Below, piece by piece: positions 3,349 through 63,780 of a stretch of 64,000 bases of DNA (positions within the stretch are counted from its first letter, which is position 1; each line of letters begins with the position of its first letter). The translations under genes were made by a program, and so were the position numbers. The DNA comes from Armatimonadota bacterium (lineage in GTDB: Bacteria > Armatimonadota > SYMT01). The stretch spans positions 128,001-192,000 of the forward strand of contig JAWLHY010000002.1 in NCBI GenBank assembly GCA_041690135.1. Reading direction: 5' to 3'. The notes below the pieces were generated by a model, which saw nothing but the letters and a program-made list of their open reading frames with translations, was not told the origin of the DNA and made no database searches.

Positions 3349-3510
3349 GTTCACGAAGGCTTACGCCCGGGTACTCATCGAGTGAGTGCGGGTGCGGATT
3401 TCAATCAGCCAGTCAGGGGTTTTCAACTCGTGGAGCGCAGGAGTCCGCGCAGGTTTACGCCCCGAGGGGGTGCGGACTTTGCTCGGCCAGCCCCGGATTT
3501 CAATCCGGGG
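3349..3510 (+). repeat. Two tandem REP-like palindromic units, each carrying the TTTAC micro-insert
   Basis: AGTCCGC-GCAG-[insert 3453-3471]-GCGGACT followed by CCCCGGATTTCAATCCGGGG; degenerate copy at 3349-3433 with long insert 3359-3393. Confidence 0.75.
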
Positions 3511-3520
3511 ACTTTCTCCG

Positions 3521-4972
3521 TCAGGCAGACTGCAAGATCTCCTTGACGATGCGCGCGGGGCGGCCATCGGTAATGCGATGGTCCCGGCCGTTGGAGTGGT
3601 AGATCAGCTTCTCGTGGTCGATGCCGAAGAGGTGAAGCAGGGTGGCCTGATAGTCGTTGGGCGTCACCACATTCTCCACGGCCTTGTGGCCGACTTCGTC
3701 CGTGGCGCCGAAGGTCATCCCGGGCTTGATGCCGCCGCCGGCCAGCCAGATGGAGAAACCCTGGCCGTTGTGGTCGCGACCGGAGGAAGCGTTCAGGTCG
3801 CCCTCGCACACCGGCAAGCGCCCGATCTCGCCGCCCCAGTGGACGATCGTCGTATCGAGCAGGCCCCGCTGCTTCAGGTCCTTCACCAGGGCCGCGGCGG
3901 GCTGGTCCGTGCGACGGCAGATGGCGGGTAGGCCCTTGCGAATGTCGGTGTGGTTGTCCCACGGCTGACCGCCGAGGAAGAGCTGGACGAACCGGACCCC
4001 TCGTTCCACCAGCCGGCGCGCGATCAGGCAGCGCGTGCCGTACTCCTTCGTGGGCTCCTGGTCGAGGCCGTACATTTTGCGGATGTACTCCGGCTCCTGG
4101 GAGACGTCCAGCGCTTCCTTCGCCGCGATCTGCATCCGGGCGGCGAGCTCGTAGCTGGAGATGCGGGCCTCCAGGTCGTCCTCTCCGGGATGCCGCTCCA
4201 GGTGGCGGCGGTTCAGCGCCTCCAGGAAGGCCAGGTTGTCCTCCTGGACCGCACCGCGCAGGTGGGCGGGCGGGTCCAGGTTCAGAATACGGGGCTCCTG
4301 GGGGCGGAGCACCGTGCCCTGGTAGAGCGGCGGCATGAACCCACTGGCCCAGTTGTGGGTGCCGTCCACCGGGTGACCTCCGGGGTCGGAGAGCACCATG
4401 TAGGCGGGGAGATCGCGCGAGGTGCTGCCCAGCCCGTAGACGAGCCAACTCCCCAGCGTGGGGCGGCCGGTAACCCCCGCGATGCCCCCGTGGAAGTAGC
4501 GGATGGAAACCTCGTGACCGTTGTGCCCGGTGTGCATCGAGCGGATCACACAGAGGTCGTCCACGATGCCGGCGGTGTGCGGCAGCAACTCGGAGACGTC
4601 CGTGCCGCACTGCCCGTGCTTCGCGAACTTCCAGGGGGTGCCGAACAGCTTCTTACTTGCCCGGTTCACGAAGCTGAAGTGCACGTCTCCGCCGTAGTCC
4701 TTCCCGTGGCTGGCGGTGAGCTCCGGCTTCGGATCGAGCAGGTCTACGTGCGAGGGTCCCCCGTGCATGAAGAGGGAGATCATCGCGTTGGCCCGGGGTG
4801 CAAACTGCGGCGCCCGCGCATTCAGATTGAGCGGCAGGTTTTCCGCCGGCTTGGGCGGGGCTGCCAGGAGACCCTCTTCCTGGAGGAGGTGGGCCAGGGC
4901 AAAGGTGCCGATGCCGAAGGCGGACCGCGAGAGCAGCCAGCGCCGGGTGGGAAGCGTGGGTTCAGTCGACAT
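3521..4972 (-). CDS. DUF1501 domain-containing protein
   Basis: Tat-like TRRWLL; motifs LFMHGGPSHVDLLDPKP, RRLVERGVRFVQL, WDNH, WGGEIGR, GRDHN, WLAGGGIKPG; overlaps the upstream DUF1553 gene as is typical. Confidence 0.92.
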   Translation of the reverse strand: MSTEPTLPTRRWLLSRSAFGIGTFALAHLLQEEGLLAAPPKPAENLPLNLNARAPQFAPRANAMISLFMHGGPSHVDLLDPKPELTASHGKDYGGDVHFSFVNRASKKLFGTPWKFAKHGQCGTDVSELLPHTAGIVDDLCVIRSMHTGHNGHEVSIRYFHGGIAGVTGRPTLGSWLVYGLGSTSRDLPAYMVLSDPGGHPVDGTHNWASGFMPPLYQGTVLRPQEPRILNLDPPAHLRGAVQEDNLAFLEALNRRHLERHPGEDDLEARISSYELAARMQIAAKEALDVSQEPEYIRKMYGLDQEPTKEYGTRCLIARRLVERGVRFVQLFLGGQPWDNHTDIRKGLPAICRRTDQPAAALVKDLKQRGLLDTTIVHWGGEIGRLPVCEGDLNASSGRDHNGQGFSIWLAGGGIKPGMTFGATDEVGHKAVENVVTPNDYQATLLHLFGIDHEKLIYHSNGRDHRITDGRPARIVKEILQSA

Positions 4973-7898
4973 AGAGAAACTCGTTGGAGCTGAGAAGCTG
5001 TTGACAGAGATTCGTCAGGGCCGCCGGTTCGGCCTTCTCAGCGCCGACGGCACCTCGCAGCAGATCGTGCTGCTTGCGGACAAACTGGAGCGCGGCCGCC
5101 GACTCTTCCGCCGTGACCGGCCGGTTGTAGGCGATCTCCCAGGCTAGTGCGACCTGCTTCGCCAGGTCGCCGGGGGCCTCTTTCCGCAGGCGCTCGGCGA
5201 AGTGCCCCGCCTGTTTCAGCACGAAGTCGCTGTTCATCAACGTGAGGGCCTGCGGCGCCGAGTTCGTGGTGATCCGGCGCTCGCAGTTGACCGTCATCAC
5301 GGGAGCGTCGAAGGAGACCAGGAACGAGACCGGCATGCTCCGTCGCACCTGGAGGTAGAGGCTGCGCCGCGGCGAGTCATCCTTCGCGGAGACCTGTCCG
5401 ACGGTGTCTTCCACCAGCGGCACCGGCGGCCCGAACTGCGTGCGATCCAGCCGGCCGGCGACGGCCAGCATCCGGTCGCGCAGGGCCTCCGCATCCAACC
5501 GCCGCACCGGGTACCGGCTGTAGAGCGACCCATCGGAGTCCACGGCCCGCTTCCGGGCATCCGCAACGGAAGCCTGGCGGTAGACGGTGGAGGTCATGAT
5601 GAGACGGTGGAGAGCCTTAAGGGACCAGCCCAGGCCCTCGGCGGGGCCAGCGGTTGGGGGCTGGGGGCCGCCGGACCTGAAGGATGAAGGATGAAGGATG
5701 AAGGATGAACCCTGGGAGCCAGAAGTCGCTGCGGTCGACGGGGAGCCCGTTTCCCCGGCCCCTGGCCCCTGGCCCCTGGCCCCAGTTGCGAACACAGATG
5801 CGAGATAGTCCAGCAACTCCGGATGGGTAGGCAGTGTGCCGAGCTTGCCGAACTCGCCGGGGGTGTCGACGATGCCGCGGCCGAAGTGGTTGAGCCACAC
5901 GCGGTTGACGAGCACGCGGCTCAGAAGCGGGTGCCGGCCGGAGGTGAGGTGGCGCGCCCAGGCAAGGCGGCGGCCGGTGGTCGGCAGGCTGGGATCGTCC
6001 GCCGGGATGTCGACGCGCGCGCCTTCCGGGGCGGCGATTGTCAGGTCTCCCGGAGCGATTGCCTCCTTCGGCGCGCGGTAGTCGCCGCGGTAGAAGAGGC
6101 GGGTCACCGGCACCTGTCCCGGCTCCTCCGTGAGGATGCTGATAAAGTCTTCCAGCGGCCGCTGCGCGCGCTTGGCGGCGATGGCCGCCTGGTCTGCCTT
6201 CAATTCGTCCGCCGCCTTCTGGTTGTACTGGTAGAGCACGCCCGGGGTGATCAGTAGCTTGGGATTCGTGGCGATCAACTGCTTCTGCTCGGCGTTCCGT
6301 TTGTCGGCCGGGGTCTTGAGGGCTTCCCGCAGCTTTTCGCGGAGGGTCGGCTCGAACTTCTGCAGCTCTACCTCCAGCGCCTCGGCCACGTACCGGGCCT
6401 GCTTCTCGTTGAAGGCAGCCTGGAGCTTCTGCGCTTCGGCCTCCACCACGGCGGCCTTGGCCCGCTCTTCATCCGTGTAAAGGGAGTGGAGACGTTGGGC
6501 CGGTGTGCGCCACCGGGCCGGGTTGAGTGACGGCTCGAAGATGGCCCGCAGCCGGAAGTAGTCGGACTGCGGGATCGGGTCGTAGCGGTGGTCGTGGCAC
6601 TGGGCGCAGCCGACGGAGAGGCCCAGCAGGCTGGAGCTGACGATCTTGAGCGTATCGTTGACCACCTGGTTGGTGGCGGCGGGATCGTTTCCCGTGCCAT
6701 CCACGGCGTTCCGCAGGAAGCCGGTAGCCACCAGTTTCTCAATCTGGTCCGGCTTCAGGTTGGCCCAGGGGCGCGGCACCAGCTCGTCTCCCGCAAGTTG
6801 CTCGGTAAGGAACTGGTCGAACGGCTTATCCGCGTTCAGAGAGCGGATGACATAGTCCCGGTACTTGTAGGCGTAATTGCGGGGAGTATCGTTGCTGCCG
6901 TTGCCGTCGGAGTCGGCATAGCCCGCCACATCCAGCCAGTGCCGGCCCCAGCGCTCCCCGTAATGCGGGGAAGCCAGCAGCCGATCGATCATCCGCTCGT
7001 AAGCCTTTGAAGGTTCCGGTTCGGGACAGGCGGAGCCACAGATTTCACAGATTGCCGGGCTAGCCGGAGATGCTCCGGAACTCTTACTCCTACTCCTACT
7101 CCTACTTCCCTCCCCGGCCGCGGTCGCGGCGATCCGGAGGTGTGCTTCCTTCTCCGCCTCGCAATCCTTAAGATACGTCTCCACTTCTTCCGAAGACGGG
7201 GGAAGCCCGGTGAGATCGAAGGCGGCGCGGCGGACCAACGTGAGCGGGTCCGCGTCCGGCGCGAAGGAGAGGCCTTTCTCCCGCAGCTTCTGGAGCACGA
7301 AGGCGTCGATGGGGGTCCGCACCCGGTCCGCGGCCTTGAACTTCGGCGGCTCGGGGCGGCGAAGGGGCTGGAAGAACCAGTAGGCGCGCTCTTCCGGGGT
7401 AATGTCCATTCCCGGTGGTAGTTGTTCCGGCTCGACCCGGCGCGTGGGCGCCCCGGCGGCGATCCACTTCTCGATCACGGCGATCTGCTCGGCCGGGACC
7501 TTCTTCCCCACCGGCGGCATGTCGCCCGCTTTCACCCGCAGCAGCAGTACACTCTGTGCCGGTTGATGGGGGATGAGGCCGGGGCCGCTGTCGCCGCCCT
7601 TCGCGATGAACCGGCGCAGGCGCAGGTCGAGGTTGCCTTCCACCTTCTCGCCGCCGTGGCAGTCGATGCAGTACGCCTTCAGGATGGGCCGGACGTCGTG
7701 CTCGTAGCTGAGGGTGGGCACCGCGGCCTTGACCGTCTTCGCTTCCTTTGCAGTTGCCGGTTTCTTGACCGCGGGCTTTCGCACGGTGCTTTTCCGCGCC
7801 GCTGGCCGGCGGGCCGCGGTGGCCTGGCCGGCGGTGACCCCGCCGGCCAGGGTCAGGCCGCAGAGCGAAAGGGCTACAAGTTGGGGGCGGGGACGCAT
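4962..7898 (-). CDS. Planctomycete cytochrome c / DUF1549 / DUF1553 (PSD1) protein with two repeat-derived in-frame inserts
   Basis: CIDCH and CAQCHDH heme motifs; SPHYGERWGRHWLDVAGYADS; VNRVWLNHFGRGIV; THPELLDYLA; QALTLMN; LLSSNEFLYVD. Confidence 0.93.
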   Translation of the reverse strand: MRPRPQLVALSLCGLTLAGGVTAGQATAARRPAARKSTVRKPAVKKPATAKEAKTVKAAVPTLSYEHDVRPILKAYCIDCHGGEKVEGNLDLRLRRFIAKGGDSGPGLIPHQPAQSVLLLRVKAGDMPPVGKKVPAEQIAVIEKWIAAGAPTRRVEPEQLPPGMDITPEERAYWFFQPLRRPEPPKFKAADRVRTPIDAFVLQKLREKGLSFAPDADPLTLVRRAAFDLTGLPPSSEEVETYLKDCEAEKEAHLRIAATAAGEGSRSRSRSKSSGASPASPAICEICGSACPEPEPSKAYERMIDRLLASPHYGERWGRHWLDVAGYADSDGNGSNDTPRNYAYKYRDYVIRSLNADKPFDQFLTEQLAGDELVPRPWANLKPDQIEKLVATGFLRNAVDGTGNDPAATNQVVNDTLKIVSSSLLGLSVGCAQCHDHRYDPIPQSDYFRLRAIFEPSLNPARWRTPAQRLHSLYTDEERAKAAVVEAEAQKLQAAFNEKQARYVAEALEVELQKFEPTLREKLREALKTPADKRNAEQKQLIATNPKLLITPGVLYQYNQKAADELKADQAAIAAKRAQRPLEDFISILTEEPGQVPVTRLFYRGDYRAPKEAIAPGDLTIAAPEGARVDIPADDPSLPTTGRRLAWARHLTSGRHPLLSRVLVNRVWLNHFGRGIVDTPGEFGKLGTLPTHPELLDYLASVFATGARGQGPGAGETGSPSTAATSGSQGSSFILHPSSFRSGGPQPPTAGPAEGLGWSLKALHRLIMTSTVYRQASVADARKRAVDSDGSLYSRYPVRRLDAEALRDRMLAVAGRLDRTQFGPPVPLVEDTVGQVSAKDDSPRRSLYLQVRRSMPVSFLVSFDAPVMTVNCERRITTNSAPQALTLMNSDFVLKQAGHFAERLRKEAPGDLAKQVALAWEIAYNRPVTAEESAAALQFVRKQHDLLRGAVGAEKAEPAALTNLCQQLLSSNEFLYVD

Positions 7899-8143
7899 CG
7901 CGCACTCCTACAGATCGGCCGGCAAACGATTACCGGAGGGATGAGACACCCGTCGTGGTGCTTTGTGGGTTGAGATTCTCGGGCGTTGGGCGGCCAATTA
8001 CAACGAATGGTGCAATTGTCACCTAAGGGCTAGCTAAGGACAGTACAGCAAAGGAGCGATCCTTCGTCTGATCTAACGGAATTGCTGCCCACGACGCTAA
8101 AACCATGCAGCAGCCAACCAACCTTCGTAAGAAAGGAAAGCCT

Positions 8144-8857
8144 ATGTTCGTTCGCTCACCACGCGCCAGAGGGTTCACCCTGATCGAACTCCTCGTGGTC
8201 ATAGCCATCATCGCTATCCTTGCAGCTATCCTCTTCCCCGTGTTCGCCCGTGCCCGCGAAGCCGCCCGAGCAGCAAACTGTAAGAGCAATCTCAAGCAGC
8301 TTGGGATCGGGATGAACATGTACGTCCAAGATTTTGACGAGGTCTATCCCCATTGGGCCTTTCAGTTCATGGGCACAACCCTTCCGACAGGTTCCCCTAC
8401 GGGCAACGGTGCCACCCAGAATGCTCTCTGGTTCCACATGCTGCATCCGTACATCAAGAATGTCGGGGTGTTTAACTGTCCCAGTAGTACGCCGAGTCCG
8501 GTGGGACGTTATACCGGACAGTACACCGGGACCCTCTCCTACGGGTACAACTATAACGGAGGCAGCCGGGCTACTTCGCACGGCGGTTGCGCGGCAAACT
8601 GTGGAGTCAATATCCCCCTCAGTTCCATGGCCGCCATCGAGGATGTTTCTGGGACGATCCTGATGACTGACGCCAACTACTACGTCACCAGCCCCGGAGA
8701 CGGGACTGCCGACTATGCCAACCGTGTTCGCGCGGCGCACAACGAGATGACGAACGTGGTCTACATCGACGGCCATGTCAAGGCGGTGAAATACAACACC
8801 ATCGTCGCCCCGATCACCTCGGGCGCCTACAAGGCCTGGACCACCAGTCTCGACTGA
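8144..8857 (+). CDS. DUF1559 / prepilin-type N-terminal cleavage protein with H-X9-DG C-terminal motif (paralog 1)
   Basis: G|[29 protein letters not shown]; CKSNLKQ; [15 protein letters not shown]; RBS AAAGGA before ATG 8144. Confidence 0.93.
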
Positions 8858-8906
8858 GCCCAGGCAACTGGTATTCCCGCCGTAGGGTGCCGAGGACGGA
8901 GCGGAA

Positions 8907-8941
8907 GGTAGCGGTTTCGAGGCTGATTTGAGGCCGCTACC
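8907..8941 (+). terminator. Hairpin downstream of pilin-like paralog 1
   Basis: GGTAGCGGTTTC...GAGGCCGCTACC, 12-bp stem with G-U pairs. Confidence 0.45.
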
Positions 8942-8981
8942 GCAGGGCTCTGGAGTCGGCCCCTGCGGCACTTTTGCTTAG

Positions 8982-9137
8982 TACTACAGCCGCAGTTCAC
9001 TGTGCGGAGCGGATGGGTGAGGTGATTCCAGTCGGCGAAGGTTTACACCCGGGTACCCGCTTGCGGGTGTGGGTGCCGACTTAGAGCTTTTTCAGCTTGC
9101 GACTTTGAGCCGCCTAACTAAAAGTGCGGCTGTAGTA
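8982..9137. mobile_element. 156-bp MITE, IS701-family-like
   Basis: Perfect 13-bp terminal inverted repeats TACTACAGCCGCA (8982-8994) / TGCGGCTGTAGTA (9125-9137); flanking TTAG direct repeats (8978-8981, 9138-9141); no transposase ORF. Confidence 0.7.
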
Positions 9138-9402
9138 TTAGAGCTCGCTGCCGAGTTAGAGGGGGACTCCAGACGGACCAATGATGCACACACGTCGGGC
9201 CTTGCACTAGGAAGATGTGCCTTGGAAGGAGAGGTCTGTTGTTCGGGGCATTCACCCGGTGGCTTGACTACCTTAGGTGCAGGAAACCGCAGCCTAACCC
9301 GTAGCCTTACCGTCACAATTTCGCAAAATAATGTGGCGAAACGCCAAAGCTAGCGCTACACTCTAGTCATCCCTGGCGGGTCTCTTGACGAAAGGAGATA
9401 CC

Positions 9403-10119
9403 ATGACGGCACGTTTCCCTAGAAGGCGAGCATTTACCCTTATCGAACTGCTCGTAGTGATCGCTATCATCGCTATCCTTGCAGCCATCTTGTTCCCCGT
9501 CTTCGCTCGAGCCCGCGAGGCCGCTCGTGCCACCAGTTGTAAGAGCAACCTCAAGCAGATCTCTCTGGCGTACAACATGTATATTCAGGATGCCGACGAG
9601 GTGATTCCGCTCCACGCGTTCGCTAATATGGGCACCACGTTGCCGACCGGGTTTCCCACCGGGAACGGCGCTACCCAGAACTCCCTGTGGTTCCACATCC
9701 TGCATCCTTACGTGAAGAACGTGGGTCTCTTCAACTGTCCCAGCACCGTCCCGAGCCCGATCGCTCGCTACAACGGTCAGTATACGGGTAATCTCTCCTA
9801 TGGCTTTAACTACGATGGTGGAACCGCATCCATTGATGCCGCCCGGGGAGGTTGCCCCGGCAACTGCGGGGTGAACCTTCGCAATGCCGCACTGGCCGCG
9901 GTTGAGGATGTAGCCGGAACCGTTATGGTGACGGACTCCACCTATTACGTGACGGGTCCCGGACCCGGAAACGCTCTCTACTCGGATCGGGTCCGCGCCG
10001 CACACAACGAAATGGTGAACGTGGCCTACGTGGACGGTCATGTCAAGGCGGTGAAGTACAATACCCTCGTGGGACCTCCGGGCACGGCTTACAAGCCGTG
10101 GACCACCACCCTCGACTGA
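9403..10119 (+). CDS. DUF1559 / prepilin-type protein (paralog 2)
   Basis: A|[29 protein letters not shown]; [15 protein letters not shown]; RBS AAAGGAG; colinear with paralog 1 over its full length. Confidence 0.93.
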
Positions 10120-10132
10120 GCAGGTTGTAAAT

Positions 10133-10196
10133 GGGCAGCGAGTCGAAAGACGGCGTCCCGGTTTCGGGTCATCCGCTCTCTTTCGGCTCGCTTCCC
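10133..10196 (+). terminator. Long imperfect hairpin between convergent genes
   Basis: GCGAGTCGAAAGA (10138-10150) pairs with TCTTTCGGCTCGC (10179-10191), followed by TTTGTT. Confidence 0.5.
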
Positions 10197-10287
10197 TTTG
10201 TTATGGGCCTTCCGGAAGCCACCCCCTCCCAACTTAACGGAGCTTAACGGAGACGCGCATAGAGCCCCCTTCCCGGCTGCGGCCCCT

Positions 10288-12303: not shown

Positions 12304-12439
12304 GGTGATTGTGAAGCGATGGGCCGGGCATTACCGCCATTACGCCGGGAGAAGGGAAAGGCTTAGTGAAAATACGGTAAGGTACTCGATGGTGTTCGAC
12401 CCTGGCTGATGAGAATCGGGTCGTCCCGAATCCGTCTTT

Positions 12440-12738
12440 GCGTGGGGCTGAACCCGCGCTCCGGAACGGCACCGTCACCGCACCCCCTCGGGGCGTACCG
12501 TGCATCCGGACTCTCGCAGGGCTGAACCCCTGCGCTTCGGAACCGCACTGTGCCCGCACCCCCTCGGGGCGTAAACCTCCGCGGGCACATCTTACGCTCA
12601 TAGTTCACAGCCAGTTCCAGATGCTCGCTGACGCATTCTAACCTGCACCTGGATTACGGCCGCCGGACGGGGTACGCGCCGGGCGCCCACGGAGGTGGGC
12701 AGCGTGCATTTCCAAAGCCCGGCCGTTCAGGGCCGGGG
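12440..12738. repeat. REP/BIME-like cluster, paralogous to 23697-24030
   Basis: Hairpins related to GCGCAGGGCTRAACCCCTGCGC, linker TCCGGAACSGCAC, micro-insert copies at 12482-12497 (partial) and 12558-12576, empty site 12685-12700, then AAAGCCCGGCCGTTCAGGGCCGGG. Confidence 0.8.
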
Positions 12739-12754
12739 ATGGTTCCTCGCCCGT

Positions 12755-15450: not shown

Positions 15451-15893
15451 GATTTCTCCCGCCCGCTGCAATGCGGAGCCGAGATAGAGTTTCCACCCGC
15501 AGCGGCTGCTTCCTGCCGGTTGATCCGCGAATTGGGCAAATGAAACGAATGGGGGCGGAAAGGTGTTCGGGCGCTCAGGTGTTCATGCACCCGGACCCTG
15601 GTTCCTGGTCTCCCATGCGTGATACGCGGCCGAATCCGCCGCCTTCCGCGATTGGCGGGGTGAATGAGCCGGGTCCCATCGAAAGTCCCATTCTCCCTGG
15701 CTACCGGAGTAGGTGCCGGGGGTATCCCCTGCTTTCTCGCGGGGTTTCGTGACAGAGAGAAGGCGGAGTCGCGACGTGGCGAGAGTAGCCTTAAGATGCT
15801 TCTAAGGCGCTGGTAAGCGAAACTTTAGATCGTCATGGCTAATCTAATCCGGCATATTGCCGTTCTCGCTTTTAACGCACCAGGAGAACATCC

Positions 15894-16664
15894 GTGCGCA
15901 ACGAATCTACCCGACACCCTCGCCACGGCTTCACACTCATTGAACTACTCGTCGTTATTGCAATCATCGCAATATTGGCGGCTATTCTCTTTCCGGTGTT
16001 CGCCCAGGCTCGCGAGGCGGCGCGGAAGGCGAGCTGCCTCTCCAACATGAAGCAGATCTCCACCGCCCTCACCCTGTACGCGGATGACTATGATGAGACG
16101 GTCGGCCGCAAATGGTACGAGTGGCACACCGACCTGGACCCCTACGTGAAGAACGGCCAGGTGTGGACATGCCCAAGCTCTTCCGCGCCGAAGCCGGTCC
16201 AGGTCCAATTCACCAACTACCGGGCCACGGACGGCTCCCCCATGACCGGTATGTTCTGGACGAACCGCCCCACCGCCAACCAGCCGTACATCTGGGGCCA
16301 CTACAGCCGTAACGACGAGCTTCTCCATAACTACGGCTTCACGGGCGCCACCTCTCCCACCAACTCCCGGATGCCCAGTTGGGACCGTCCGGCGGACGTG
16401 ATCCTGATCGGAGAAACGCGCTCCGGCACCGAAGATGACGATACCAACGACTTCGATGAGGACAACGCCCCTTATTGCGAACCCGGCGGGACCAACTGGA
16501 ATCAGGTGTACAACCACCTGTCGCTGCGGCACGCCGGTGGCCAGAACGTGATCTTCGGTGACCTCCATGCCAAGTTCGTGAAGTGGGAGTGGTTCAAAAC
16601 ACCGCAGGGCAAATACGCCATCTGCCCGTTCCAGGCCAACAAGGCGGATGGAACCGGCTGGTAG
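15894..16664 (+). CDS. DUF1559 / prepilin-type protein (third, divergent)
   Basis: [30 protein letters not shown]; CLSNMKQ; C-terminal [16 protein letters not shown]; GTG start with AGGAG. Confidence 0.92.
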
Positions 16665-16700
16665 TCCGCAGATTCCCAACCGTATCGGTTCGGACCGGCT

Positions 16701-17885
16701 TTGCAATATCCTCACCGTGCGGACATCTCTCTCCTCCGGAAGTCATTGCGCCAGGAGGGCGGTTTCTCCGGGGAAAGCCCGGGTTCCCACCCTCCGGCCC
16801 GCTCCGGGTACGGCATCCCGCGCCCGGCAAAGGGGAGGAGGCACGAGATTCGCAGGCAGGCAGAACCCGGGCGGGGCCAATCCCGCCCGGAACGAACCCC
16901 AATCATAGACGCAGCAGCCAACCGGCTACGCTCCATCCCGGAGCACCGGGGATGGTTCCGGTGGCTGGCGGGGGCGTTCCTCGTCCTCGCCGGATGGATT
17001 GCCGCGCCCCGTCCCGTGCCGGCAATCATCCTATCCGGGTCGGGCGACCGAAGCGACGGGCTCTACGGCATCACCACCGACCGCGAGTATTCCGGCGTGG
17101 TCGGAGTGTTGCACCGAAAGCCGGACGGGCTCCTGATCCCGGAGGCGACCGGGGTGCTCATCAGCCGGCGTCACGTCCTCTCCTGCGCGCACGGCTTTTT
17201 CATGGAGAACCGGGGCCGCAACCCTGCCGACTTTCGGATCTCGGTGGAAGGCGTTGTTCATCCGGTCGCCGCCATCGCGACCCATCCCGAGTTCCGGTTG
17301 GGCAGTCATGCCGCCGACCTGGCGGTGCTCACCCTCACTGTGCCGGTGCCCAGCAGCGTCCGCACCTACCGCTGCAACGACGGGAGCCTGGACGAACTGA
17401 AGGTCGGCCGCTGCACGCTGGTGGGTCTGGGCATGAGCGGTTCGGCGGCGCGGGGGATGAACCGGGAGCTGACACCCGGCGTCAAGCGCGCGGGCACCAA
17501 CACCATCGACTTCATCAGCGACGGCACCGCCGGACTGCCGGTCCCGGATAAGCCGATGTGGATCTTACCCCCGCATATCCTCGTGACCGACCTGGACAAC
17601 CACCTTACCCCCCACGTGAACGGTTATCCGGGAGAAGCGCCGGGGTTCCCCCGCGTCCCGGGCGCCGGCACTGACGACCCCACCGAAGCGGGCCCCGCGA
17701 TTGGCGACTCCGGCGGTCCCCTGTTCCAGACCGATCCCCGCGACGGCAGCCGGATCGTGGTGGGCATCGGCTCCGGCGGCGGCGGTCCCGGCCGTGGGGG
17801 CATCGGCGACTACGGCCTTTACGCCCGGGTGAGCCCCTACTACCGGTGGATCCACGACCGGATGGAGCCCTCCGGCCAGCATTAG
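16701..17885 (+). CDS. Trypsin-like (S1) serine protease, secreted; start codon uncertain
   Basis: Catalytic triad motifs LSCAHG, ADLAVL, GDSGGP; YARVSPY; hydrophobic signal-like segment ending VPA-II begins about 85 codons into the ORF. Confidence 0.8.
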   Translation: MQYPHRADISLLRKSLRQEGGFSGESPGSHPPARSGYGIPRPAKGRRHEIRRQAEPGRGQSRPERTPIIDAAANRLRSIPEHRGWFRWLAGAFLVLAGWIAAPRPVPAIILSGSGDRSDGLYGITTDREYSGVVGVLHRKPDGLLIPEATGVLISRRHVLSCAHGFFMENRGRNPADFRISVEGVVHPVAAIATHPEFRLGSHAADLAVLTLTVPVPSSVRTYRCNDGSLDELKVGRCTLVGLGMSGSAARGMNRELTPGVKRAGTNTIDFISDGTAGLPVPDKPMWILPPHILVTDLDNHLTPHVNGYPGEAPGFPRVPGAGTDDPTEAGPAIGDSGGPLFQTDPRDGSRIVVGIGSGGGGPGRGGIGDYGLYARVSPYYRWIHDRMEPSGQH

Positions 17886-18067
17886 CCTGATGCAGCCCGG
17901 AACCGCTCGTACACCCTTTCCGGAAGCGGATGAAGCAGCCGCCAGCGCACTCGCATCGGCCGCTCGGACTCGTGACCGAGGTACTCGGCGGGACCCATGC
18001 AGAAGTAGGGCTGGGTGCGCCCATCGCGGACCTTTTGCTCGCGGCCGAAGAGCAGCACGTGGCTCCC

Positions 18068-19084
18068 TCACCCTCCAACTGACAGAAGGGCGTAGCGGCT
18101 GGCCCGCTCGCCGTCTTCGATGAGCAGCAGGTAGGTCCGGCCGTCGCACTCGACACGCGCCAGGGCTTCGGGGCTCTCCAACTTAAGGGTGTCCGGGAGG
18201 GAGACTCGCTGGGGTGGCTGCTTCTCGTCCCAGAGCCAGAGCGACCAGGGGGCGCGGACCGGGTGCGTCGGTTCCGCGGAGAGGCCGGAGAGCAGCCAGC
18301 AGGCCCGGCGCGCGGGGTCGTAGGCCATGTCGCGGATGCCGTGGCCTTGGAGGTCCAGCTTGACGGTGTCGCCCAGGTTGGCCGGCTGCGGGGCTTCCAG
18401 GAACAGCGCCTCCAGGTTGCGGACCCGCAGCACGACCGCATCTTCCTGGCCGCCGTGGGGGCGCGGGGTGCTCTCGGTGATGGTCGGTGCGCGAAGGCCC
18501 ACCAGCAGGTACTCTTCCGGATGCCAGGCGAGCCCCTCGATGTTCAGGCCGGTGCGCGCCGGAGTGCGCCGGATGGCGTCCGCCAGGAACGGCACGTCGT
18601 TCACGATCGCCTGCAGGAGACCACCGGACTGCCGGGCCTCGCGCAGTTTCCCCAGCGCGTCGAACCGCAGGCGGCCCAGGCGGTAGTGCTCCTCGGGCGC
18701 GTCACCGCGGGCCTCGCGCGCGTGGGAGCCGGCCAGGATCGCGTCCCGCGTACCGTCCCACGCCACCGCTTCCAGGTCCCCCAGCTTCACTTGGCCCCGA
18801 AGAGAATCGTCCAGGCGCTCGGCCGGCGTGACGGTCACCGATCCCGCGCGCAGCCGCGGCAGGGGGTCCTCCAGCAAGGAGATCTGCGGCTGTCGGTCGG
18901 ACACGAGCAGGAGACGGCTGCCCCGGATAAACGCCGCCCCAGAGATACCGGGTAGCGCGATCTCGCCGGTGGCTTCCACCTGAAGGCGGGGAGGGGACGC
19001 GACCGGACCCGCAATGGGAAGGGCCGGGGAGCCGAGTCCCAGGCATAGGATAACGAGTAGCGGCCGGATGGTGTGTATGCCCAT
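18068..19084 (-). CDS. DUF3616-like beta-propeller protein, secreted
   Basis: Signal peptide; DLEAVA, GSH, GLNIEGLA, VGLRAP, LDLQGHGIRDM, PEALA motifs. Confidence 0.75.
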   Translation of the reverse strand: MGIHTIRPLLVILCLGLGSPALPIAGPVASPPRLQVEATGEIALPGISGAAFIRGSRLLLVSDRQPQISLLEDPLPRLRAGSVTVTPAERLDDSLRGQVKLGDLEAVAWDGTRDAILAGSHAREARGDAPEEHYRLGRLRFDALGKLREARQSGGLLQAIVNDVPFLADAIRRTPARTGLNIEGLAWHPEEYLLVGLRAPTITESTPRPHGGQEDAVVLRVRNLEALFLEAPQPANLGDTVKLDLQGHGIRDMAYDPARRACWLLSGLSAEPTHPVRAPWSLWLWDEKQPPQRVSLPDTLKLESPEALARVECDGRTYLLLIEDGERASRYALLSVGG

Positions 19085-19228
19085 GAATCGCAGCGGAGCC
19101 TCCGGCGCGGCCGGCGGATGGATGCCGGTAGGCTCACGCTCGATTCTAGCGCATGCGCGGCGGGTTTGTTCTGGAAGCTGCGGTCACTGCCAGTCGCGAG
19201 ACCACACCTCTCCTACCTGAAGCGCCTC

Positions 19229-20368
19229 TCAAGCGGCCCGGCCGTTGGGAGACGGTGCCACGCGGGCGTGCCCCTTGCCGTTGCGCTTCACCTCGTAGAG
19301 GGCCTCATCCGCGCGCTTGATGAGAGACTCTTTGGTGTCACCCGCAACCGAGCCCGCCACCCCCACGCTGAAGGAGATGCGGACGGAGACGTGGCGGTCT
19401 TCGTGCTTGAAGTTGATGGGGCGTTGGGAGGCGATGCGGTCGAACCGTTCGGCCAGCCGGTCCGGCGGCGTGCCCGGGGCCAGCATGCAGAACTCGTCGC
19501 CGCCGTAGCGGCCCAGTACATCGCCGGGGCGGGCGATCTTGGTCAGCAGGTTCACCGCCATCTGCAGGATCTGGTCGCCCACCAGGTGGCCCAGGGTGTC
19601 GTTGATCCCCTTGAAGTTATCGAGGTCGATCATCGCCATCGCCAGGGGCGTGGGCGACTTGAGCGCCGCCTCAAGTTGCGCTTCGAAGCCGCCGCGATGA
19701 TAGATCCCGGTGAGGGCGTCGCGGGTGGCCTCGTGGCGCGCGCGCATCAGGGCCGCTTCGAGCTGCTGCACCTGCACGGCCAGGGCCATGGCGCGCTCGT
19801 CGTCCTGCTTCGACTTCTGGTCCAGCAAGGTGTTGGCCCGCTGCAGCTCCGACTCGAGGCGCTCGCGGACCTGCCGCAGGTCATCGAGGCGGACCACGGT
19901 GCCCAGGCGGTCGTGGATCCCGCGCAGGTTCTCGTGGAACTGCTGGTTGGCGGCGCCGTCTACCCGCTGGTGCTCCTGATAGAGCGACAGAAGTCGCCAG
20001 AGCTCGTCCTCTCGTTCGGACAGGTAACGGCGCTGGAGCTGCCCGAAGGCGCTCAGCGAGTCCGCGGCCCAGCGCCGGTGGCCTTCCAATTCCGTCGACT
20101 CGGATTCCGGCGAAAGGTGCGCCGCGGTTCGGCGCAACCGGTCCAGAAATCCGGGCGCGTCGAGATCCGGCGTGGAGAGCACGAAGTGCTCGATGCCGCG
20201 AAGCAGCTCTCTCGCAAGTTCGAGCGCGGCACCTGATGAGGTGTTGGACACCGCCGGAGCGGGAGCCGCGGGCGCGGGCGCGCTCACCTGGTGGGGAGCG
20301 GCGGGCGGCTCGCTGTTTGGCTCGGGCGCCGGCTTGCGGCCGAAGCCGAGAAGAAGCCGAGACGGCAT
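19229..20368 (-). CDS. Diguanylate cyclase (GGDEF) with N-terminal coiled coil
   Basis: RDALTG, DLDNFKGINDTLGHLVGD, I-site RPGD, RYGGDEF, RADEALY. Confidence 0.93.
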   Translation of the reverse strand: MPSRLLLGFGRKPAPEPNSEPPAAPHQVSAPAPAAPAPAVSNTSSGAALELARELLRGIEHFVLSTPDLDAPGFLDRLRRTAAHLSPESESTELEGHRRWAADSLSAFGQLQRRYLSEREDELWRLLSLYQEHQRVDGAANQQFHENLRGIHDRLGTVVRLDDLRQVRERLESELQRANTLLDQKSKQDDERAMALAVQVQQLEAALMRARHEATRDALTGIYHRGGFEAQLEAALKSPTPLAMAMIDLDNFKGINDTLGHLVGDQILQMAVNLLTKIARPGDVLGRYGGDEFCMLAPGTPPDRLAERFDRIASQRPINFKHEDRHVSVRISFSVGVAGSVAGDTKESLIKRADEALYEVKRNGKGHARVAPSPNGRAA

Positions 20369-20568
20369 CGAATGTGTGTCCCTGGTGCTGACCTGGCCCT
20401 ATTAATAGTTGGGCCTTATTATCTATTGTTCCGGATTTCTCCGGAAAGTGGAGAGCCCGCTGCGGATTTATCCCGGCGGCTTCGCCGGAAGGACTCGCGA
20501 CCGTCGGCCCCGCATGGTAAATCGTCGGCTGCCGGGCCGACTAAAGCCCCGCTTCGGAAAGGACTCTC

Positions 20569-21549
20569 ATGAACCGTCCTCCCATTGATTTTACCCCCGT
20601 GCCCGCGGCAACCTTGCGGCGCTTCGTGTTGACCGTGTTCGCAGCCGCCGGGATGCCGGAGAGCCACGCTTCCCTGCTTGCGGATCTCCTGACCACGAAC
20701 GATCTACGGGGCGTTTTCAGCCATGGTACCCGACAAACCGCAGCGTACGTCGATCATTTTCGGGCCGAACGCCTGACTCCCCGTCCTGAAGTGCGCGTGA
20801 TCGAGGAGACCCCCACCACGCTGGTGGTGGACGGGGGCGGCGGCCTGGGGTATTTCCCGGCGCACCTGGCCGCGACTCGCCTGGGACCTAAGGCCCGGGA
20901 GCTGGGCCTGGCGGCGGCCCTCACCCGGAACCACGGCCACATCGGGGCGGCGGGAATCTACGCCCGCATTCCGCTGGAGCATGATCTCTTCTGTTACGTT
21001 ACTTCCGGACATCAATTAGACCTCCAACCCGGGCAAACCATTCTGAGCGCGGCGGGAGGCTCGCCGCATTCCTTTGCGCTTCCGACCGGTGACGAGCCTC
21101 CTTTCGTGCTCGACTTTGGGGCTGTGCACGATATGTATCCGGGATCGCCTCACGTGGACCAGTTGATTGCGCTGGCGCCGGGAACGGTATTCCGCTCCAT
21201 CGGCCTGGGGGCGGTGTGCCAGGCGCTGGGCGGTTTCCTGGCGGGCGTGCCCGTCGACCCATCGCGCGCGCAGCGGGAGTGGAGCGGAGCCAACCAGGGG
21301 TGTTTCATGATCGCGGTGGACCTCCGGCGGTTCTGCGCTCTCGACGCTTTCAAGCGGGAGATGGACGAGTACGCGCGCCGCGTCCGCGAGCTAAAGCCGC
21401 TGGCCGGGTTCGACCAGGCGATGCTGGCCGGGGAGCTCGAATGGCGGCGGGAACGCCAGTACGCGGAAGAAGGCATCCCGGTCGGAGCGGAGCACGCCGA
21501 GTTACTGCGGAAGCTTGCCGCCGACTACGGCCTCCAGCCGCCCCTGTGA
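20569..21549 (+). CDS. Ldh_2 (malate/L-lactate dehydrogenase-like) oxidoreductase
   Basis: DLRGVFSHG, VDGGGGLGY, RNHGHIGAAGIY, FVLDF, MLAGELE. Confidence 0.85.
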   Translation: MNRPPIDFTPVPAATLRRFVLTVFAAAGMPESHASLLADLLTTNDLRGVFSHGTRQTAAYVDHFRAERLTPRPEVRVIEETPTTLVVDGGGGLGYFPAHLAATRLGPKARELGLAAALTRNHGHIGAAGIYARIPLEHDLFCYVTSGHQLDLQPGQTILSAAGGSPHSFALPTGDEPPFVLDFGAVHDMYPGSPHVDQLIALAPGTVFRSIGLGAVCQALGGFLAGVPVDPSRAQREWSGANQGCFMIAVDLRRFCALDAFKREMDEYARRVRELKPLAGFDQAMLAGELEWRRERQYAEEGIPVGAEHAELLRKLAADYGLQPPL

Positions 21550-21606
21550 TACCGATATCGGGTGCAGACGGGTACGGAGTGGACAGGTATCGAAAGGAGG
21601 ACCGGA

Positions 21607-23199
21607 GTGGCCCAGTGGCAGCGATATCAGGAGTATCTGTTCCGAGATGAAGCTCTCGGAGTCTCGGTCGACATCAGCCGGATGGGGTTCCCGGAGGGTT
21701 TCTTCCAGCAGATGGCAGCGCCGATGGCGGGTGCCTTCGAAGCGATGACTCGGCTGGAAGCGGGGGAGATCGCCAATCCGGATGAAAACCGGATGGTCGG
21801 CCACTACTGGCTCCGCGCTCCGGAACTGGCGCCGGCGGAACACCCGGAGATCCGCCGGGGAATCGAAGAGACGCAGGCCCGCATCCACACTTTCGCGGCG
21901 AAGGTCCATTCCGGCGAGATCGCCCCGCCCGGCGGCGGCCGGTTCCGGAACCTCCTCCTGGTCGGTATCGGCGGCTCGGCGCTGGGTCCGCAATTCGTGG
22001 CGGATGCACTGGGTGGGCCGGACCAGCCGCTGCGCCCCTTCTTCCTGGATAATACCGATCCGGACGGCATGGATCGGGTGTTCGCGGAAATCGGCGCCGG
22101 ACTCGGCGAGACTCTGGTTGTGGTGGCCTCCAAGTCCGGAGGGACGGAAGAGACCCGCAATGGGATGCTGGAGACCCGCGCGGCCTTTGAGCGGGCGGGG
22201 CTAGAGTTCGGACCCCATGCCGTGGCCATCACCCAGCAGGGGAGCAAGCTGGACCGGATCGCGGAGAGCGGCGGCTGGCGGGAGCGGTTCCCGATGTGGG
22301 ACTGGGTGGGTGGCCGCACCTCCGTCACTTCGGCCGTGGGTCTGCTGCCGGCGGTCCTCCTGGGCTACGACATCGATGGACTGCTGGCGGGGGCGCGTCA
22401 GATGGACGCCGCGACCCGAGTCCGCGACGCCCGCAAGAACCCGGCCGCCCTGCTGGCGCTGATGTGGTACTACGCCGGGGACGGGAAGGGCGAAAAGGAT
22501 ATGGTCGTTCTCCCGTACAAGGACCGCCTTCAGCTCTGTGCCCGCTACCTGCAGCAGTTGGTGATGGAGTCCCTCGGCAAGGAGTTCGACCTCGAGGGCC
22601 GCCGGGTGAACCAGGGCATCGTGGTCTACGGCAACAAGGGCAGCACCGATCAGCACGCCTACGTCCAGCAGCTCCGCGAAGGCGCCAACAACTTCTTCGC
22701 CACCTTCATCCAGGTATTGGAAGATCGGGAAGGCGAGCCGCTGGAACTGGAGCCGGGTGTCACCAGTGGTGACTCGCTCCTCGGGTTCCTGCTCGGCACC
22801 CGGCGGGCGCTGGCGGAGAATGACCGCGAGTCCCTCACCCTGACCCTGGACCGGGTAGACGCCGCCTCCCTCGGCAAGCTCATTGCCCTCTACGAGCGGG
22901 CGGTCGGCTTCTATGCCACCCTGATCGGGATTAATGCCTACCACCAGCCGGGCGTCGAAGCCGGCAAAAAGGCGGCCGGCCAGGTGATCGACCTGCAGAA
23001 GCGTGTCCAACCGGCGATCGCTGCCGCCGCAGAGCCTCTCACCGCGGAAGACGCGGCCGGAGCCCTGGGCGCGCCGGAAGAGGTGGAGACCGTTTACCAC
23101 ATCCTCCGCCACCTGTCCGCCAATCCCGGTCGCGGTGTGCGGCGTGTCCCGGGCACTACTCCCGCTGAGGATCGCTTCGGGCCGGAAGCCGGAGCCTAA
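21607..23199 (+). CDS. pgi: Glucose-6-phosphate isomerase
   Basis: [63 protein letters not shown]; GTG start after AGGAGG. Confidence 0.96.
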
Positions 23200-23251
23200 C
23201 GGCGCGGCACCGCCGGCGATTGCGGGCATCCTGAACACAGAGTAGACCCAA

Positions 23252-23275
23252 GGCGGAGTCTCGGAAGACTCCGCC
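23252..23275 (+). terminator. Hairpin between pgi and the cupin gene
   Basis: GGCGGAGTCT-CGGA-AGACTCCGCC, perfect 10-bp stem. Confidence 0.45.
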
Positions 23276-23293
23276 AGTTCAGGAGACACGCAA

Positions 23294-23674
23294 ATGCTCG
23301 AGCACACCCGCGAGGCAAGGGAAGTCCGCTTTCATCCCCAGTCGGTTCACCATTTCCCCCTGTCGGCCGCCATCCGGGAGCTTCGGCAGGAACCGGTGTA
23401 CGACGTGAACGGGCATACGGGCACCACCCTGGTGAAGCATTCCGATCTGCGGGTGGTCCTCCAGGCGATGCAGCCCGGCGCGGCCCTCAAGGAGCATCAC
23501 GCTCCGGGCCCGATCAGCGTGCAGGTGCTGGAAGGGGAACTGCGCTTCGAGGCGGAAGGCGAGGTCTTCTACCTTATAGCCGGGGATCTCCTGACCCTTC
23601 CCGCGGGTGTACCTCATTCGGTCGAAGCGGTGAAGGAAAGCGCCTTCCTGCTCACCATCGCTCCGTCGAACTGA
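23294..23674 (+). CDS. Cupin domain protein
   Basis: LKEHHAPGPISVQVLEG, LPAGVPHSVEA; RBS AGGAG. Confidence 0.88.
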   Translation: MLEHTREAREVRFHPQSVHHFPLSAAIRELRQEPVYDVNGHTGTTLVKHSDLRVVLQAMQPGAALKEHHAPGPISVQVLEGELRFEAEGEVFYLIAGDLLTLPAGVPHSVEAVKESAFLLTIAPSN

Positions 23675-23696
23675 AAGGAACACCGGGCGCCTCCTT

Positions 23697-24030
23697 GCGC
23701 AGGGCTAAACCCCTGCGCACCGTCCCCGCACCGTCCCGGCACCCCACACCCGCGCGCGGGTACCCGGGCGTAAACCTCCGCGGGCACGCCGTGCACCCGG
23801 TCCCGCGCAGGGCTAAACCCCTGCGCTCCGGTACCGCACCGTCCCCGCCTCCGCAGGCACGCATCACGCGCATTTGTCTTGGCGAGTTCCGGACGTTTGC
23901 TGACGCATACCCGGTTGCACAGGGATCGCGGTAGCAGTACTGGGCGAAAACCGGGCGCCCACGGAGGTTTACGCCCCGAGGGGGTGTGGGCAGCGTGCAT
24001 TTCCAAAGCCCGCCCGTTCAGGGGCGGCGC
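23697..24030. repeat. REP/BIME-like cluster with micro-inserts
   Basis: GCGCAGGGCTAAACCCCTGCGC twice (23697-23718, 23805-23826); long insert 23741-23775 on the minus strand; short insert 23967-23985; flanks match 12679-12720. Confidence 0.82.
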
Positions 24031-24072
24031 GGGGTGGCGCACCGCATACGCGGTTCATCCACCCGCGCATTG

Positions 24073-35863: not shown

Positions 35864-36043
35864 CGAACACCTGAACACGCGAGCACCTGAAAACCCGACG
35901 AGCCTTCCAACTTGCTAACCTGCAACTCGGATCCCGTTTCGCCAACACGTACCCGTTACCGACAACAGGGGTCCCCAACCTTTAGCCCCCGAGGGGGGCT
36001 TCAACTTTCAACCTGCCAACTTTCAACCTGCCAACCTTCAACT
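35864..36043. repeat. Mixed short tandem repeats (ACCTGAAC octamer; CCTTCAA/CTGCCAA heptamer) and a GCCCCCGAGGGGGGC hairpin
   Basis: CCGAACACCTGAACACGCGAGCACCTGAAAACCCGA; TTCAACTTTCAACCTGCCAACTTTCAACCTGCCAACCTTCAAC. Confidence 0.7.
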
Positions 36044-52387: not shown

Positions 52388-52633
52388 AAAACTTCCTCTT
52401 CTTCCTAAGCAACGGCGCCGTCGAAACGGCGTACCCGGCGGCGGTCACGAAGGGTGCACTCCGGGGTACGCGCGGGCCAATCCAGTTTACACCGGTACGG
52501 GAGGCTTTACCTGCCTTTGCACCTTGCGCGCGTACTGCGCGTGCGGCACGAGACAGGCGGCGGGGCTTGCGGCGGCGACGCAAGCCGGGCCCGCAGTAGG
52601 TAGTGTGCCACTGCGAGCCCGAAATCTGCAGGG

Positions 52634-57150: not shown

Positions 57151-57167
57151 ATATTGCCCCCGTTACG

Positions 57168-63754: not shown

Positions 63755-63780
63755 TTGGCGGTGTCCTGGTGCAGCGTTTG

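Follow-up and report, generated by a model that had tools for sequence, protein, structure and literature searches.

A family of 19-nucleotide (nt) DNA units was examined in an Armatimonadota draft genome (9,098,857 bases in 25 contigs, 65% G+C), starting from a 64,000-nt stretch of contig C2 (C2:128001-192000, referred to below as the window). The unit consists of a tetranucleotide followed by an imperfect hairpin, and its insertion is precise and strand-specific, without duplication of the target, 3' of a short sequence motif. Within this genome the phenomenon is real and well documented, and at 19 bases the element is one of the smallest mobile-looking DNA elements seen. It is probably a true inserted and mobile element. 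The reading preferred here, with a probability of roughly 0.5, is that the units form a lineage-specific family of non-autonomous mobile micro-elements on which a Y1 (HUH) enzyme would act in trans.

Filled sites, empty sites and the boundaries of the unit

The window DNA was searched for the 19-mer GTTTACGCCCCGAGGGGGT. Three exact copies reported in an earlier note, made from the letters of the window alone, were recovered at 3453-3471 (+), 12558-12576 (-) and 23967-23985 (+), together with its partial fourth copy, which lies at 12482-12500 (-) and has 3 mismatches to GTTTACGCCCCGAGGGGGT. With 3 mismatches allowed the 4 matches compare with 0.03 expected, and four or more were obtained in 0 of 100 shuffles. 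Every exact copy in the window is preceded by GNAG, and a perfect host hairpin is restored once the 19-mer is removed, the flanks being GTCCGC-GCAG-[19]-GCGGAC for the copy at 3453, GTGCCCGC-GGAG-[19]-GCGGGCAC for that at 12558 and GCCCAC-GGAG-[19]-GTGGGC for that at 23967. The empty site described in the same note is also present: 23951-24011 minus its 19-mer equals 12679-12720, and a BLAST search of the insert-deleted genome gave 98.1% identity over 54 nt between the filled host 23951-24030 and the empty host at 12679. Further members that the note had not listed, three long forms and one copy of a TTTAG subfamily, were found in the window (Table 1). The genome as a whole contains 39 exact copies of the 19-mer, 110 with at most 3 mismatches and 201 with at most 4 mismatches.

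The best evidence that the empty state is probably ancestral and that the 19-mer was inserted comes from two insertion sites in orphan YD-repeat (RHS-type) fragments near the ends of contigs C11 and C12. The empty paralogues, a long open frame of 1296 codons at C12:278321-282208 and two others, read ...AAYG/GCAAC... at both places (the slash marks the junction), and the intact frame at both empty sites reads in-frame YDxxGN repeats. The filled fragments, at C12 283423 and 283691 downstream of the intact frame and at C11 1638 and 6478, contain 19 extra bases and their frame is shifted. Alignment of filled and empty sequences showed clean 19-nt gaps without duplication in surroundings of 88-90% identity over 466-715 nt. 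The inserts have the form YTTRT-GCCCC-NNN-GGGGT-A, in which the closing pair is T-A in place of C-G, itself a further paired change, and the right flank that follows is identical to that of the empty sites. Across this locus (C12:278321-285427 and C11:1-9000) one long frame is followed by fragmented paralogous pieces, and 19-nt inserts stand at two of the places where the frame of the fragments is broken.

The RHS insertions also settled a 1-nt ambiguity in the boundaries, since they show that the element extends from TTTA to the base that pairs with position 5. The boundaries first proposed hold within this ambiguity; the first base of the element lies 1 nt further right, and the G in front of it is host sequence. 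The corrected coordinates are those given in Table 1.

Filled and empty sites were then counted in the host repeats, which are labelled HA to HH. All 110 copies were deleted from the genome, 8 insert-free host sequences were searched against it by BLAST, and matches spanning the junction were counted; HH was counted by anchor distance, and for HA-HE short anchors were too noisy and were replaced by the insert-deleted BLAST search. At least 8 unrelated host repeat families have both filled and empty members. The filled and empty counts were 14 and 16 for HA, 8 and 9 for HB, 6 and 25 for HC, 5 and 8 for HD, 4 and 23 for HE, 4 and 10 for HF, and 4 and 3 for HG. Among the matches listed for HH, 3 sites carry the 19-mer, 3 carry long forms and 23 of 31 anchor pairs are empty. 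Per-site BLAST searches with the hosts of individual window copies gave 3 filled and 15 empty paralogues for the HE host of 3454-3472, 6 and 9 for the HB host of 12557-12575, and 14 and 16 for the HA host of 23968-23986; the junction of the degenerate copy at 12482-12500 was spanned by no paralogue in these searches.

The host families are mutually not alignable, and the identical master variant of the element is found in all eight. Variants are shared between families as well: the GCTTGY variant, which has two substitutions, occurs in HA (9), HB (2), HF (2), HH (2) and at three other sites, and the GCG-loop variant in HG (5), HH (4), HA (1) and HD (1). Maximum-likelihood trees of the hosts were built from 85 columns with the insert removed. 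The number of changes of filled state on these trees, observed against the shuffled mean, was 9 against 10.2 for HA, 6 against 6.0 for HB, 5 against 5.7 for HC, 4 against 4.2 for HD, 4 against 3.8 for HE and 4 against 3.7 for HF. This scatter is compatible with many separate insertion events and does not amount to proof of them. In HG all 4 close paralogues are filled and their inserts have diverged in place, indicating that some copies spread along with their hosts.

In the host families and at the RHS gaps the unit behaves as the earlier note proposed, as a minimal inserted element that is non-autonomous, has filled as well as empty sites and leaves its target unduplicated. Sequencing runs were also searched with words from the window, which retrieved 5 DNA runs with small word shares and no RNA run. 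Contigs of 4 soil-metagenome runs matched the window region 4100-24099 as short low-depth pieces, none of which bridged a filled or empty site.

Anatomy of the unit and its flanking motif

The family pattern TTTACSMCCCNNNGGGKKG matched the genome 119 times and its reversed control 0 times. Of 400 further genomes from the phylum, 3 had a single match each, and with at most 1 mismatch to the 19-mer there were 61 matches in this genome compared with 0 in 40 others, 6 of which belong to different genera of the same family. A scan with GTTTACGCCCCGNGGGGGT found 33 loci in the species-level genome collection and 8 in the metagenome collection, with one match per locus; judged from their flanks, these lie mostly in tRNA-like context in Bacillaceae and some are 16S-like. 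No multi-copy occurrence of GTTTACGCCCCGNGGGGGT outside this genome was found in either collection. As far as the collections reach, the micro-element family is specific to this organism.

The unit had initially been described as TTTAC plus a small hairpin. The combination of a tetranucleotide with a hairpin was upheld, and the composition was refined to a total of 19 nt, made up of TTTA, a stem of 6 bp and a loop of 3 nt. A scan for TTTA followed by a hairpin starting with C or G, with a stem of 5-7, a loop of 3-4 and no more than one G-T pair, and with A-[GCT]-N in front of the TTTA, found 162 sites compared with 25 in the reversed genome, and 130 of the 162 are exactly 19 nt long. Generic scans for TTTA-hairpins without the flank filter were noisy (248 versus 126 and 268 versus 182 in the reversed genome), and the counts relied on are those of the flank-filtered scan and of the family pattern.

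The commonest stem is CGCCCC/GGGGTG, with 35 exact copies with a GAG loop and 18 with an ACA loop. Other subfamilies have the stems CCCCCC/GGGGGG (18), CCACCC/GGGTGG (11 plus 5), GCCCCC/GGGGGC (8) and CCCTCC/GGAGGG (2). The hairpin is under selection, because the stems of the subfamilies differ by paired, compensatory changes. The commonest stems hold a G-T pair, which can form on the TTTAC strand only. The tetranucleotide is TTTA, or CTTG in one subfamily.

The search pattern suggested in the earlier note, GTTTACRCCC-N-GGGT, retrieved longer relatives with the same ends, 33-35 and 49 nt in length. Counted by eye, there are about 24 forms of 33-35 nt and about 4 of 49 nt among 134 regular-expression matches, most of which are chance. 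The 33-35-nt form reads TTTAC-R-CCC GGGTACCCAC GGAG TGGGTGT GGGTG. The longer forms, among them the copy at 9042-9075 in the window, fold into TTTA and an extended hairpin with bulges, and not into two separate ends. The size classes differ in the apex and agree in the tetranucleotide and the stem foot (C-R-CCC ... GGGTG); conservation of the unit is confined to these two parts. Strict patterns divided the 198 TTTACRCCC heads in the genome into 88 of the 19-nt type, 10 long forms, 2 of 49 nt and 98 others, the last comprising about 10 further long forms, some degenerate short copies and unrelated sequence.

Tandem doubles without a spacer occur at 3 loci, and in these the TTTAC copy is always 5' of the CTTGC copy. 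Direct tandems are expected if the target lies wholly in the left flank and survives insertion. No copy was found inside the loop of another, the 3 tandem or partial arrangements being the only ones seen, and the copies listed are single units or direct tandems, with no inverted doublets of the kind formed by repetitive extragenic palindromic (REP) sequences (REPINs) among them. The copies are strongly intergenic, 123 of 135 lying outside crude open reading frame calls. With these crude gene calls there is no clear bias in orientation (37 in the same and 26 in the opposite direction in tandem intergenic spacers), and copies fall in convergent, divergent and tandem spacers at about background proportions, with no preference for convergent ones. 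The GC skew was about +/-0.03 and noisy in 50-kb bins of the 25-contig draft, and replichores were not assignable. A second abundant hairpin repeat, with 61 exact copies, proved to be the CRISPR repeats of contig C3 and is unrelated to the micro-element; these arrays fall into 3 blocks over a distance of about 17 kb, and their repeats (CTTGTCCCCACGCACGTGGGGGTGAACCG, variant GTTTTCCCC) and spacers are about 29 and 32 nt long, respectively.

The feature shared by the copies had been proposed to be the GNAG tetraloop, as a structure. This did not hold across the genome: by rule-based assignment only 56 of the 110 copies lie in the post-loop hairpin families HA-HE. In HF and HG, 16 more are located at the 3' arm of a hairpin or within it, in HH 7 lie between GTAG and a hairpin, and the remainder are in octamer arrays, RHS coding-derived DNA and single sites. 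The flanks were tallied over the 119 matches to the family pattern, which were chosen regardless of their flanks and include kin copies that are not independent. Position -3 is A in 114 of 119, at a genome A frequency of 0.175. Position -2 holds G, C or T in 114 and position -1 holds G in 87 and A in 29; farther upstream, 87 copies have G at -5 and 86 have C at -6. The common feature is a flanking sequence motif, approximately CG-N-A-S-R, before TTTA. The tetraloop is therefore a frequent carrier of the motif and not the thing recognised, because only about half of the copies lie in post-loop hairpins and the motif recurs elsewhere.

Hairpin loops carry the motif as CGNAGG. The HF and HG hairpins have GGGAGAGG or CGGAGAAG, located at the 3' arm or within it, HH has GTAGG between its GTAG and the hairpin, the RHS repeats have AAYG, and octamer arrays have CGAACA, TGAACG, CCAACC or CGCAAAGG; 35 of the 39 exact copies follow NAG. 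The motif alone is insufficient, as among the copies listed none follows the CAG/G of the GTTCAG loop in the second hairpin of HA and HB. Every listed copy keeps a fixed orientation with respect to its host. When filled sites were folded as single-stranded DNA the host stem was kept, with the element hairpin stacked on the host 3' arm and an 8-nt bulge (GNAG plus GTTT) on the 5' side. The fold energies are modest and in some contexts no better than those of shuffles.

Host repeats, Y1 genes and a candidate mechanism

Nine genes or gene fragments with a Y1_Tnp domain (PF01797) are present in the genome. The NCBIfam IS200/IS605 cut-off of 55 bits was passed by C11:209599-210033 (77), C1:627745-628215 (74.5) and C2:54539-54973 (57.8), and the cut-off of 80 bits for REP-associated tyrosine transposases (RAYTs) by one of four scanned genes, C1:749149-749709, which scored 104. 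The other Y1 loci are C9:13911-14459, C23:415-906, C14:177808-178347, C1:1172409-1172969 and a fragment on C19. The C11 gene has HB(-)/HA(+) pairs on both sides, and the C2 gene is flanked by inverted HE copies. The hairpin hosts had been called REP sequences, and HA/HB and HE are indeed REP-like and flank IS200-type Y1 genes. A Y1-like gene at C14:177808-178347 is flanked by inverted copies of a further hairpin, REP-K (CGGCGGACGGGACGTCCGCGCTCC), within C14:177579-178504; in a hairpin scan of 7 Y1 loci this was the only hairpin that flanked the gene. The host repeats are REP-like repeats, of the bacterial interspersed mosaic element (BIME) kind, of Y1 transposases. HA and HB form alternating, inverted clusters with a spacing of about 75-230 nt, which are BIME-like, at 12420-12780 and 23690-24060 in the window. 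The same composite occurs on C3 near 530 kb, on C14 near 167 kb, on C11 near 196 and 210 kb and on C2 near 367 kb, with identities of about 67-78%.

REP-K has 50 copies at up to 3 mismatches, 13 of which have a TTTA-hairpin no farther than 120 nt away. The array-borne elements within 120 nt of REP-K number 18, all of them on the REP-K strand and 15 upstream of it. Many of the listed REP-K copies have an octamer array on either side, the upstream one of the ACCYGAAC type and the downstream one of the GCCCAAYG type, a composite that recalls cyanobacterial short tandem repeats. The apexes of host hairpins in this genome look modular, and several of them have a second apex module, CCGGG-Y-ACCC-NNNN-GGGTGG, in place of the GNAG apex or joined to it. 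This module was seen in HE copies on C9 and C17 and at C2 1274487, beside 19-mers at C2:352708 and C3:634999, and inside the 49-nt form.

The preferred explanation takes the unit as the minimal substrate, guide tetranucleotide plus imperfect hairpin, of a single-stranded DNA transposase of the Y1 (HUH) type from the IS200/IS605-RAYT superfamily. Acting in trans, such an enzyme would cut the unit out of single-stranded DNA and join it into single-stranded DNA. REP hairpins and arrays would be favoured as landing sites in that they hold the motif, are often single-stranded and may be bound by such enzymes; the motif is common in the loops and arms of REP-like hairpins, in octamer arrays beside REP-K and in YD-repeat coding sequence. 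The excerpted text of Messing et al. (2012; PMC3479197) reports that the TnpA-REP enzyme of E. coli binds REP at the 5' GTAG and at the 3' side of the base of the imperfect stem, requires a mismatch in the stem and is capable of strand transfer, and that two bases of the GTAG pick a CT cleavage site, which can be on either side of the hairpin and may be distant. In IS200/IS605 transposases, according to the same excerpts, the 4-5 nt that precede the cut are selected by guide bases located 5' of the foot of the hairpin (PMC3479197). The 5' tetranucleotide and the stem foot, which are constant across the size classes of the micro-element, are the parts that E. coli TnpA-REP contacts in that account (PMC3479197). 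The Y1 genes of the genome, the REP-like repeats at their flanks and the strand and position of the elements near REP-K also count, indirectly, in favour of a Y1 enzyme. Mobilisation in trans by a Y1/HUH enzyme would be the best explanation of the family because the anatomy fits the logic of TnpA-REP and IS200 and the landing sites are substrates of such enzymes. That a Y1 enzyme moves the unit is, as a claim on its own, given close to an even chance.

Several observations weigh against this explanation. The flanking motif is degenerate, where IS608 and ISDra2 have strict targets of 4-5 nt, and the unit has a single hairpin, compared with one hairpin per end in IS200/IS605 elements and a dimeric transposase acting on two hairpins. 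TTTACRCCC lies within 1.5 kb of only 1 of the 9 Y1 loci, that on C11, where it is nested in an HB REP, and no micro-element was found to flank a Y1 gene on its own. None of the 198 TTTACRCCC heads begins a full-length or autonomous element around a transposase gene, so that the alternative suggestion of the earlier note, a precise excision scar, finds no support. All of the evidence for movement comes from paralogues within one assembly; the filled and empty counts miss diverged copies, since they include junction-spanning BLAST matches only, and the host trees are weakly resolved at 85 columns, which makes the scatter of the filled state weak evidence.

A more far-reaching form of the Y1 explanation, which we consider rather doubtful, is that the 19-nt unit is a minimal complete Y1 HUH substrate that moves as a single-stranded circle and remodels REP apexes. 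The circle would be a 6-bp dumbbell closed by GAG and TTTA loops. If this were true the unit would be the smallest transposable DNA known, and micro-transposition into loops, stems and arrays would generate the diversity of REP sequences (Y/Z-type indels, BIME-like mosaics and flanking short-period arrays) as a side effect.

Spread by RNA, in which the unit is copied through an RNA intermediate and returned to DNA, is unlikely. Such a route is said to have been proposed for the small dispersed repeats (SDRs) of cyanobacteria, and the contexts of the micro-element, inside small transposon-like repeats and in tandem short-period arrays, run parallel to those reported for SDRs. The commonest subfamilies also keep the G-T (G-U) pair, which pairs on the TTTAC strand only; hairpins of single-stranded DNA, however, tolerate a G-T pair too. 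The orientation of copies to neighbouring crude gene calls in tandem spacers (37 to 26, as above) shows no clear bias, the placement among spacer types is close to background, and Rfam models at gathering threshold gave 0 matches in the window, all of which count against an RNA intermediate.

It is also unlikely that no dedicated enzyme is involved and that the units arose by template switching during replication, or by short-patch conversion, at hairpins through microhomology, for example of AGG at the left junction and of G or GTG at the right one. Most sites are hairpins or arrays, where slippage and switching are expected, the junctions have 1-2 nt in common with the ends of the element, and the apex modules of the host hairpins look interchangeable. 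Homology of this kind does not account for insertions in RHS coding-derived DNA and in unrelated hosts without flanking similarity, nor for boundaries that are always exact and a length as uniform as that found in the flank-filtered scan. The A at position -3 in 114 of 119 copies points to recognition of a site rather than to homology.

The size classes of 19, 33-35 and 49 nt have both termini in common, as would deletion derivatives of a larger element, which raises the possibility that the unit is a footprint or internally deleted remnant of a larger insertion sequence that once targeted these sites and is now lost. This is improbable: no longer element starts with TTTACRCCC, the longer forms fold as extended hairpins and not as two separate ends, and 39 identical copies with an exact length of 19 nt argue for copying of the short unit itself.

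The reverse history, in which an immobile ancestral module of the repeats was lost many times by precise deletion, is disfavoured and very improbable. Deletion by slippage could be helped by the short direct repeats (G, GT) found at the two ends, and HG and its larger repeat units, with 4 of 4 close paralogues filled and inserts diverged in place, would fit; but mutually unalignable hosts carry the identical 19-mer and its variants, empty copies are the majority in HC (25/31), HE (23/27) and HH (23/31 anchor pairs listed), and the empty state of the RHS sites is the in-frame coding state of an intact gene. Equally remote is a functional binding site or RNA motif kept by selection and not selfish DNA, a reading compatible with mobility and in keeping with the compensatory stem changes and the intergenic position of 123 of 135 copies, since selection leaves unexplained the arrival of an identical sequence in unrelated repeats, arrays and a broken gene fragment, position and orientation relative to genes show no preference, and the family is absent from the 6 same-family genomes searched.

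Window features and comparison with known systems

The members of the family in the window and their hosts are collected in Table 1. Short tandem arrays with a period of 6-8 or multiples of it lie in intergenic sequence of the window at 5678-5783, 25885-25980, 36002-36042, 52633-52686, 57167-57450 and 63778-63820, and among these only 36002-36042 has a micro-element at its edge. The match TTTACGCCCGGG at 17818-17829 was set aside as chance; the rest of the element is missing there and the sequence appears to be coding.

Table 1. Micro-element copies, long forms and host repeats in the window (positions counted from the first base of the window, with corrected element boundaries).
Feature	Position	Strand	Context
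Diverged 35-nt long form CTTACGCCCGGG...GCGGGTG	3360..3394	+	after ...CGAAGG
HE-type REP-like host	3441..3511	+	hairpin GTCCGC/GCGGAC, second hairpin GCCCCGGATTTCAATCCGGGG; kin flank Y1 gene C2:54539-54973
19-nt element TTTACGCCCCGAGGGGGTG	3454..3472	+	after GCAG loop of HE-type REP hairpin; host stem kept in fold
34-nt long form TTTACACCCGGGTACCCGCTTGCGGGTGTGGGTG	9042..9075	+	after GAAG loop of HD-type hairpin AGTCGGC/GCCGACT
Degenerate copy CGGTACGCCCCGAGGGGGT	12482..12500	-	within HB copy without 5' arm
19-nt element	12557..12575	-	after GGAG loop of HB-type REP hairpin GTGCCCGC/GCGGGCAC
Empty HA-type REP	12679..12745	+	junction 12694/12695 (boundary of the earlier note) or 12695/12696 (corrected boundary)
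35-nt long form TTTACGCCCGGGTACCCGCGCGCGGGTGTGGGGTG	23740..23774	-	after GGAG loop of HB-type hairpin
Empty HB-type REP	23800..23862	-	GTGCCTGC-GGAG-GCGGGGAC...
19-nt element	23968..23986	+	after GGAG loop of HA-type REP hairpin
TTTAG-subfamily copy TTTAGCCCCCGAGGGGGGC	35981..35999	+	after CCAACC, at left edge of tandem array 36002-36042

If a tetranucleotide and a hairpin of 19 nt in total can be moved, the unit would define the minimal DNA required for single-strand transposition, and it would provide a short, defined oligonucleotide substrate for RAYTs and IS200-like enzymes, the natural reactions of which are still unclear. It offers a concrete explanation for REP families that differ by short central insertions. 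For annotation, inserts of this kind can break genes, as in the RHS fragments here, and confuse the annotation of repeats.

The micro-element was compared with REP, BIME and REPIN-RAYT systems as they are described in excerpts of PMC3116915 and PMC3479197. Like a REP sequence it consists of a tetranucleotide 5' of an imperfect hairpin with a G-T pair, and it is present in 119-162 mostly intergenic copies; its hosts HA/HB, HE and REP-K act like REPs, each flanking a single Y1 gene. It differs in that the 19-mer itself flanks no Y1 gene, is about half the length of a REP, occurs both inside REPs of several families and outside REPs, and has TTTA or CTTG where the REPs of these excerpts have GTAG. 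The inverted doublets of REPINs were not seen among the listed copies.

With IS200/IS605 elements such as IS608 and ISDra2, as excerpted from PMC3479197, the micro-element has in common that it is inserted on one strand, 3' of a short motif and with nothing duplicated, and that it has a hairpin with a guide-like tetranucleotide on its 5' side. A target that is retained in the left flank permits repeated insertion at one site, which fits the tandem doubles. The differences, within the scope of the same excerpts, are one hairpin instead of two subterminal ones, a length of 19 nt compared with hundreds, and a degenerate target. There is in addition no related autonomous copy of the micro-element in the genome.

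Insertion sequences that target REP palindromes, among them IS1397, ISKpn1 and IS621 of the IS110 family, bear genes and encode their own transposases. The micro-element resembles them in that REP hairpins are the preferred landing sites of another mobile element, and it differs in being a gene-less insert of 19-49 nt. The main texts of the openly accessible papers searched yielded no description of such an element in Armatimonadetes or in REP loops.

The closest described relatives are the cyanobacterial SDRs. Elhai and colleagues reportedly described SDR1-8 in 2008 from heterocyst-forming cyanobacteria (Nostoc and relatives) as hairpin repeats of 21-27 nt with compensatory changes, which are said to lie inside other small mobile repeats and in tandem short-period arrays, to occur in tandem or nested and to be confined to a narrow lineage. 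No enzyme is known to move them. By that description the micro-element is likewise a dispersed hairpin repeat of similar size range, with compensatory stem changes, a narrow lineage and no known enzyme, and it too is found in tandem short-period arrays, in other small repeats and as tandem copies. It differs from the SDRs, again by that description, in belonging to Armatimonadota, in being shorter at 19 nt, in having a clear flank motif and size classes with common termini, and in that its hosts include REP-like repeats that flank Y1 transposase genes. As far as the literature searched shows, very small mobile repeats had been found only in cyanobacteria, and they are extended here to another phylum.

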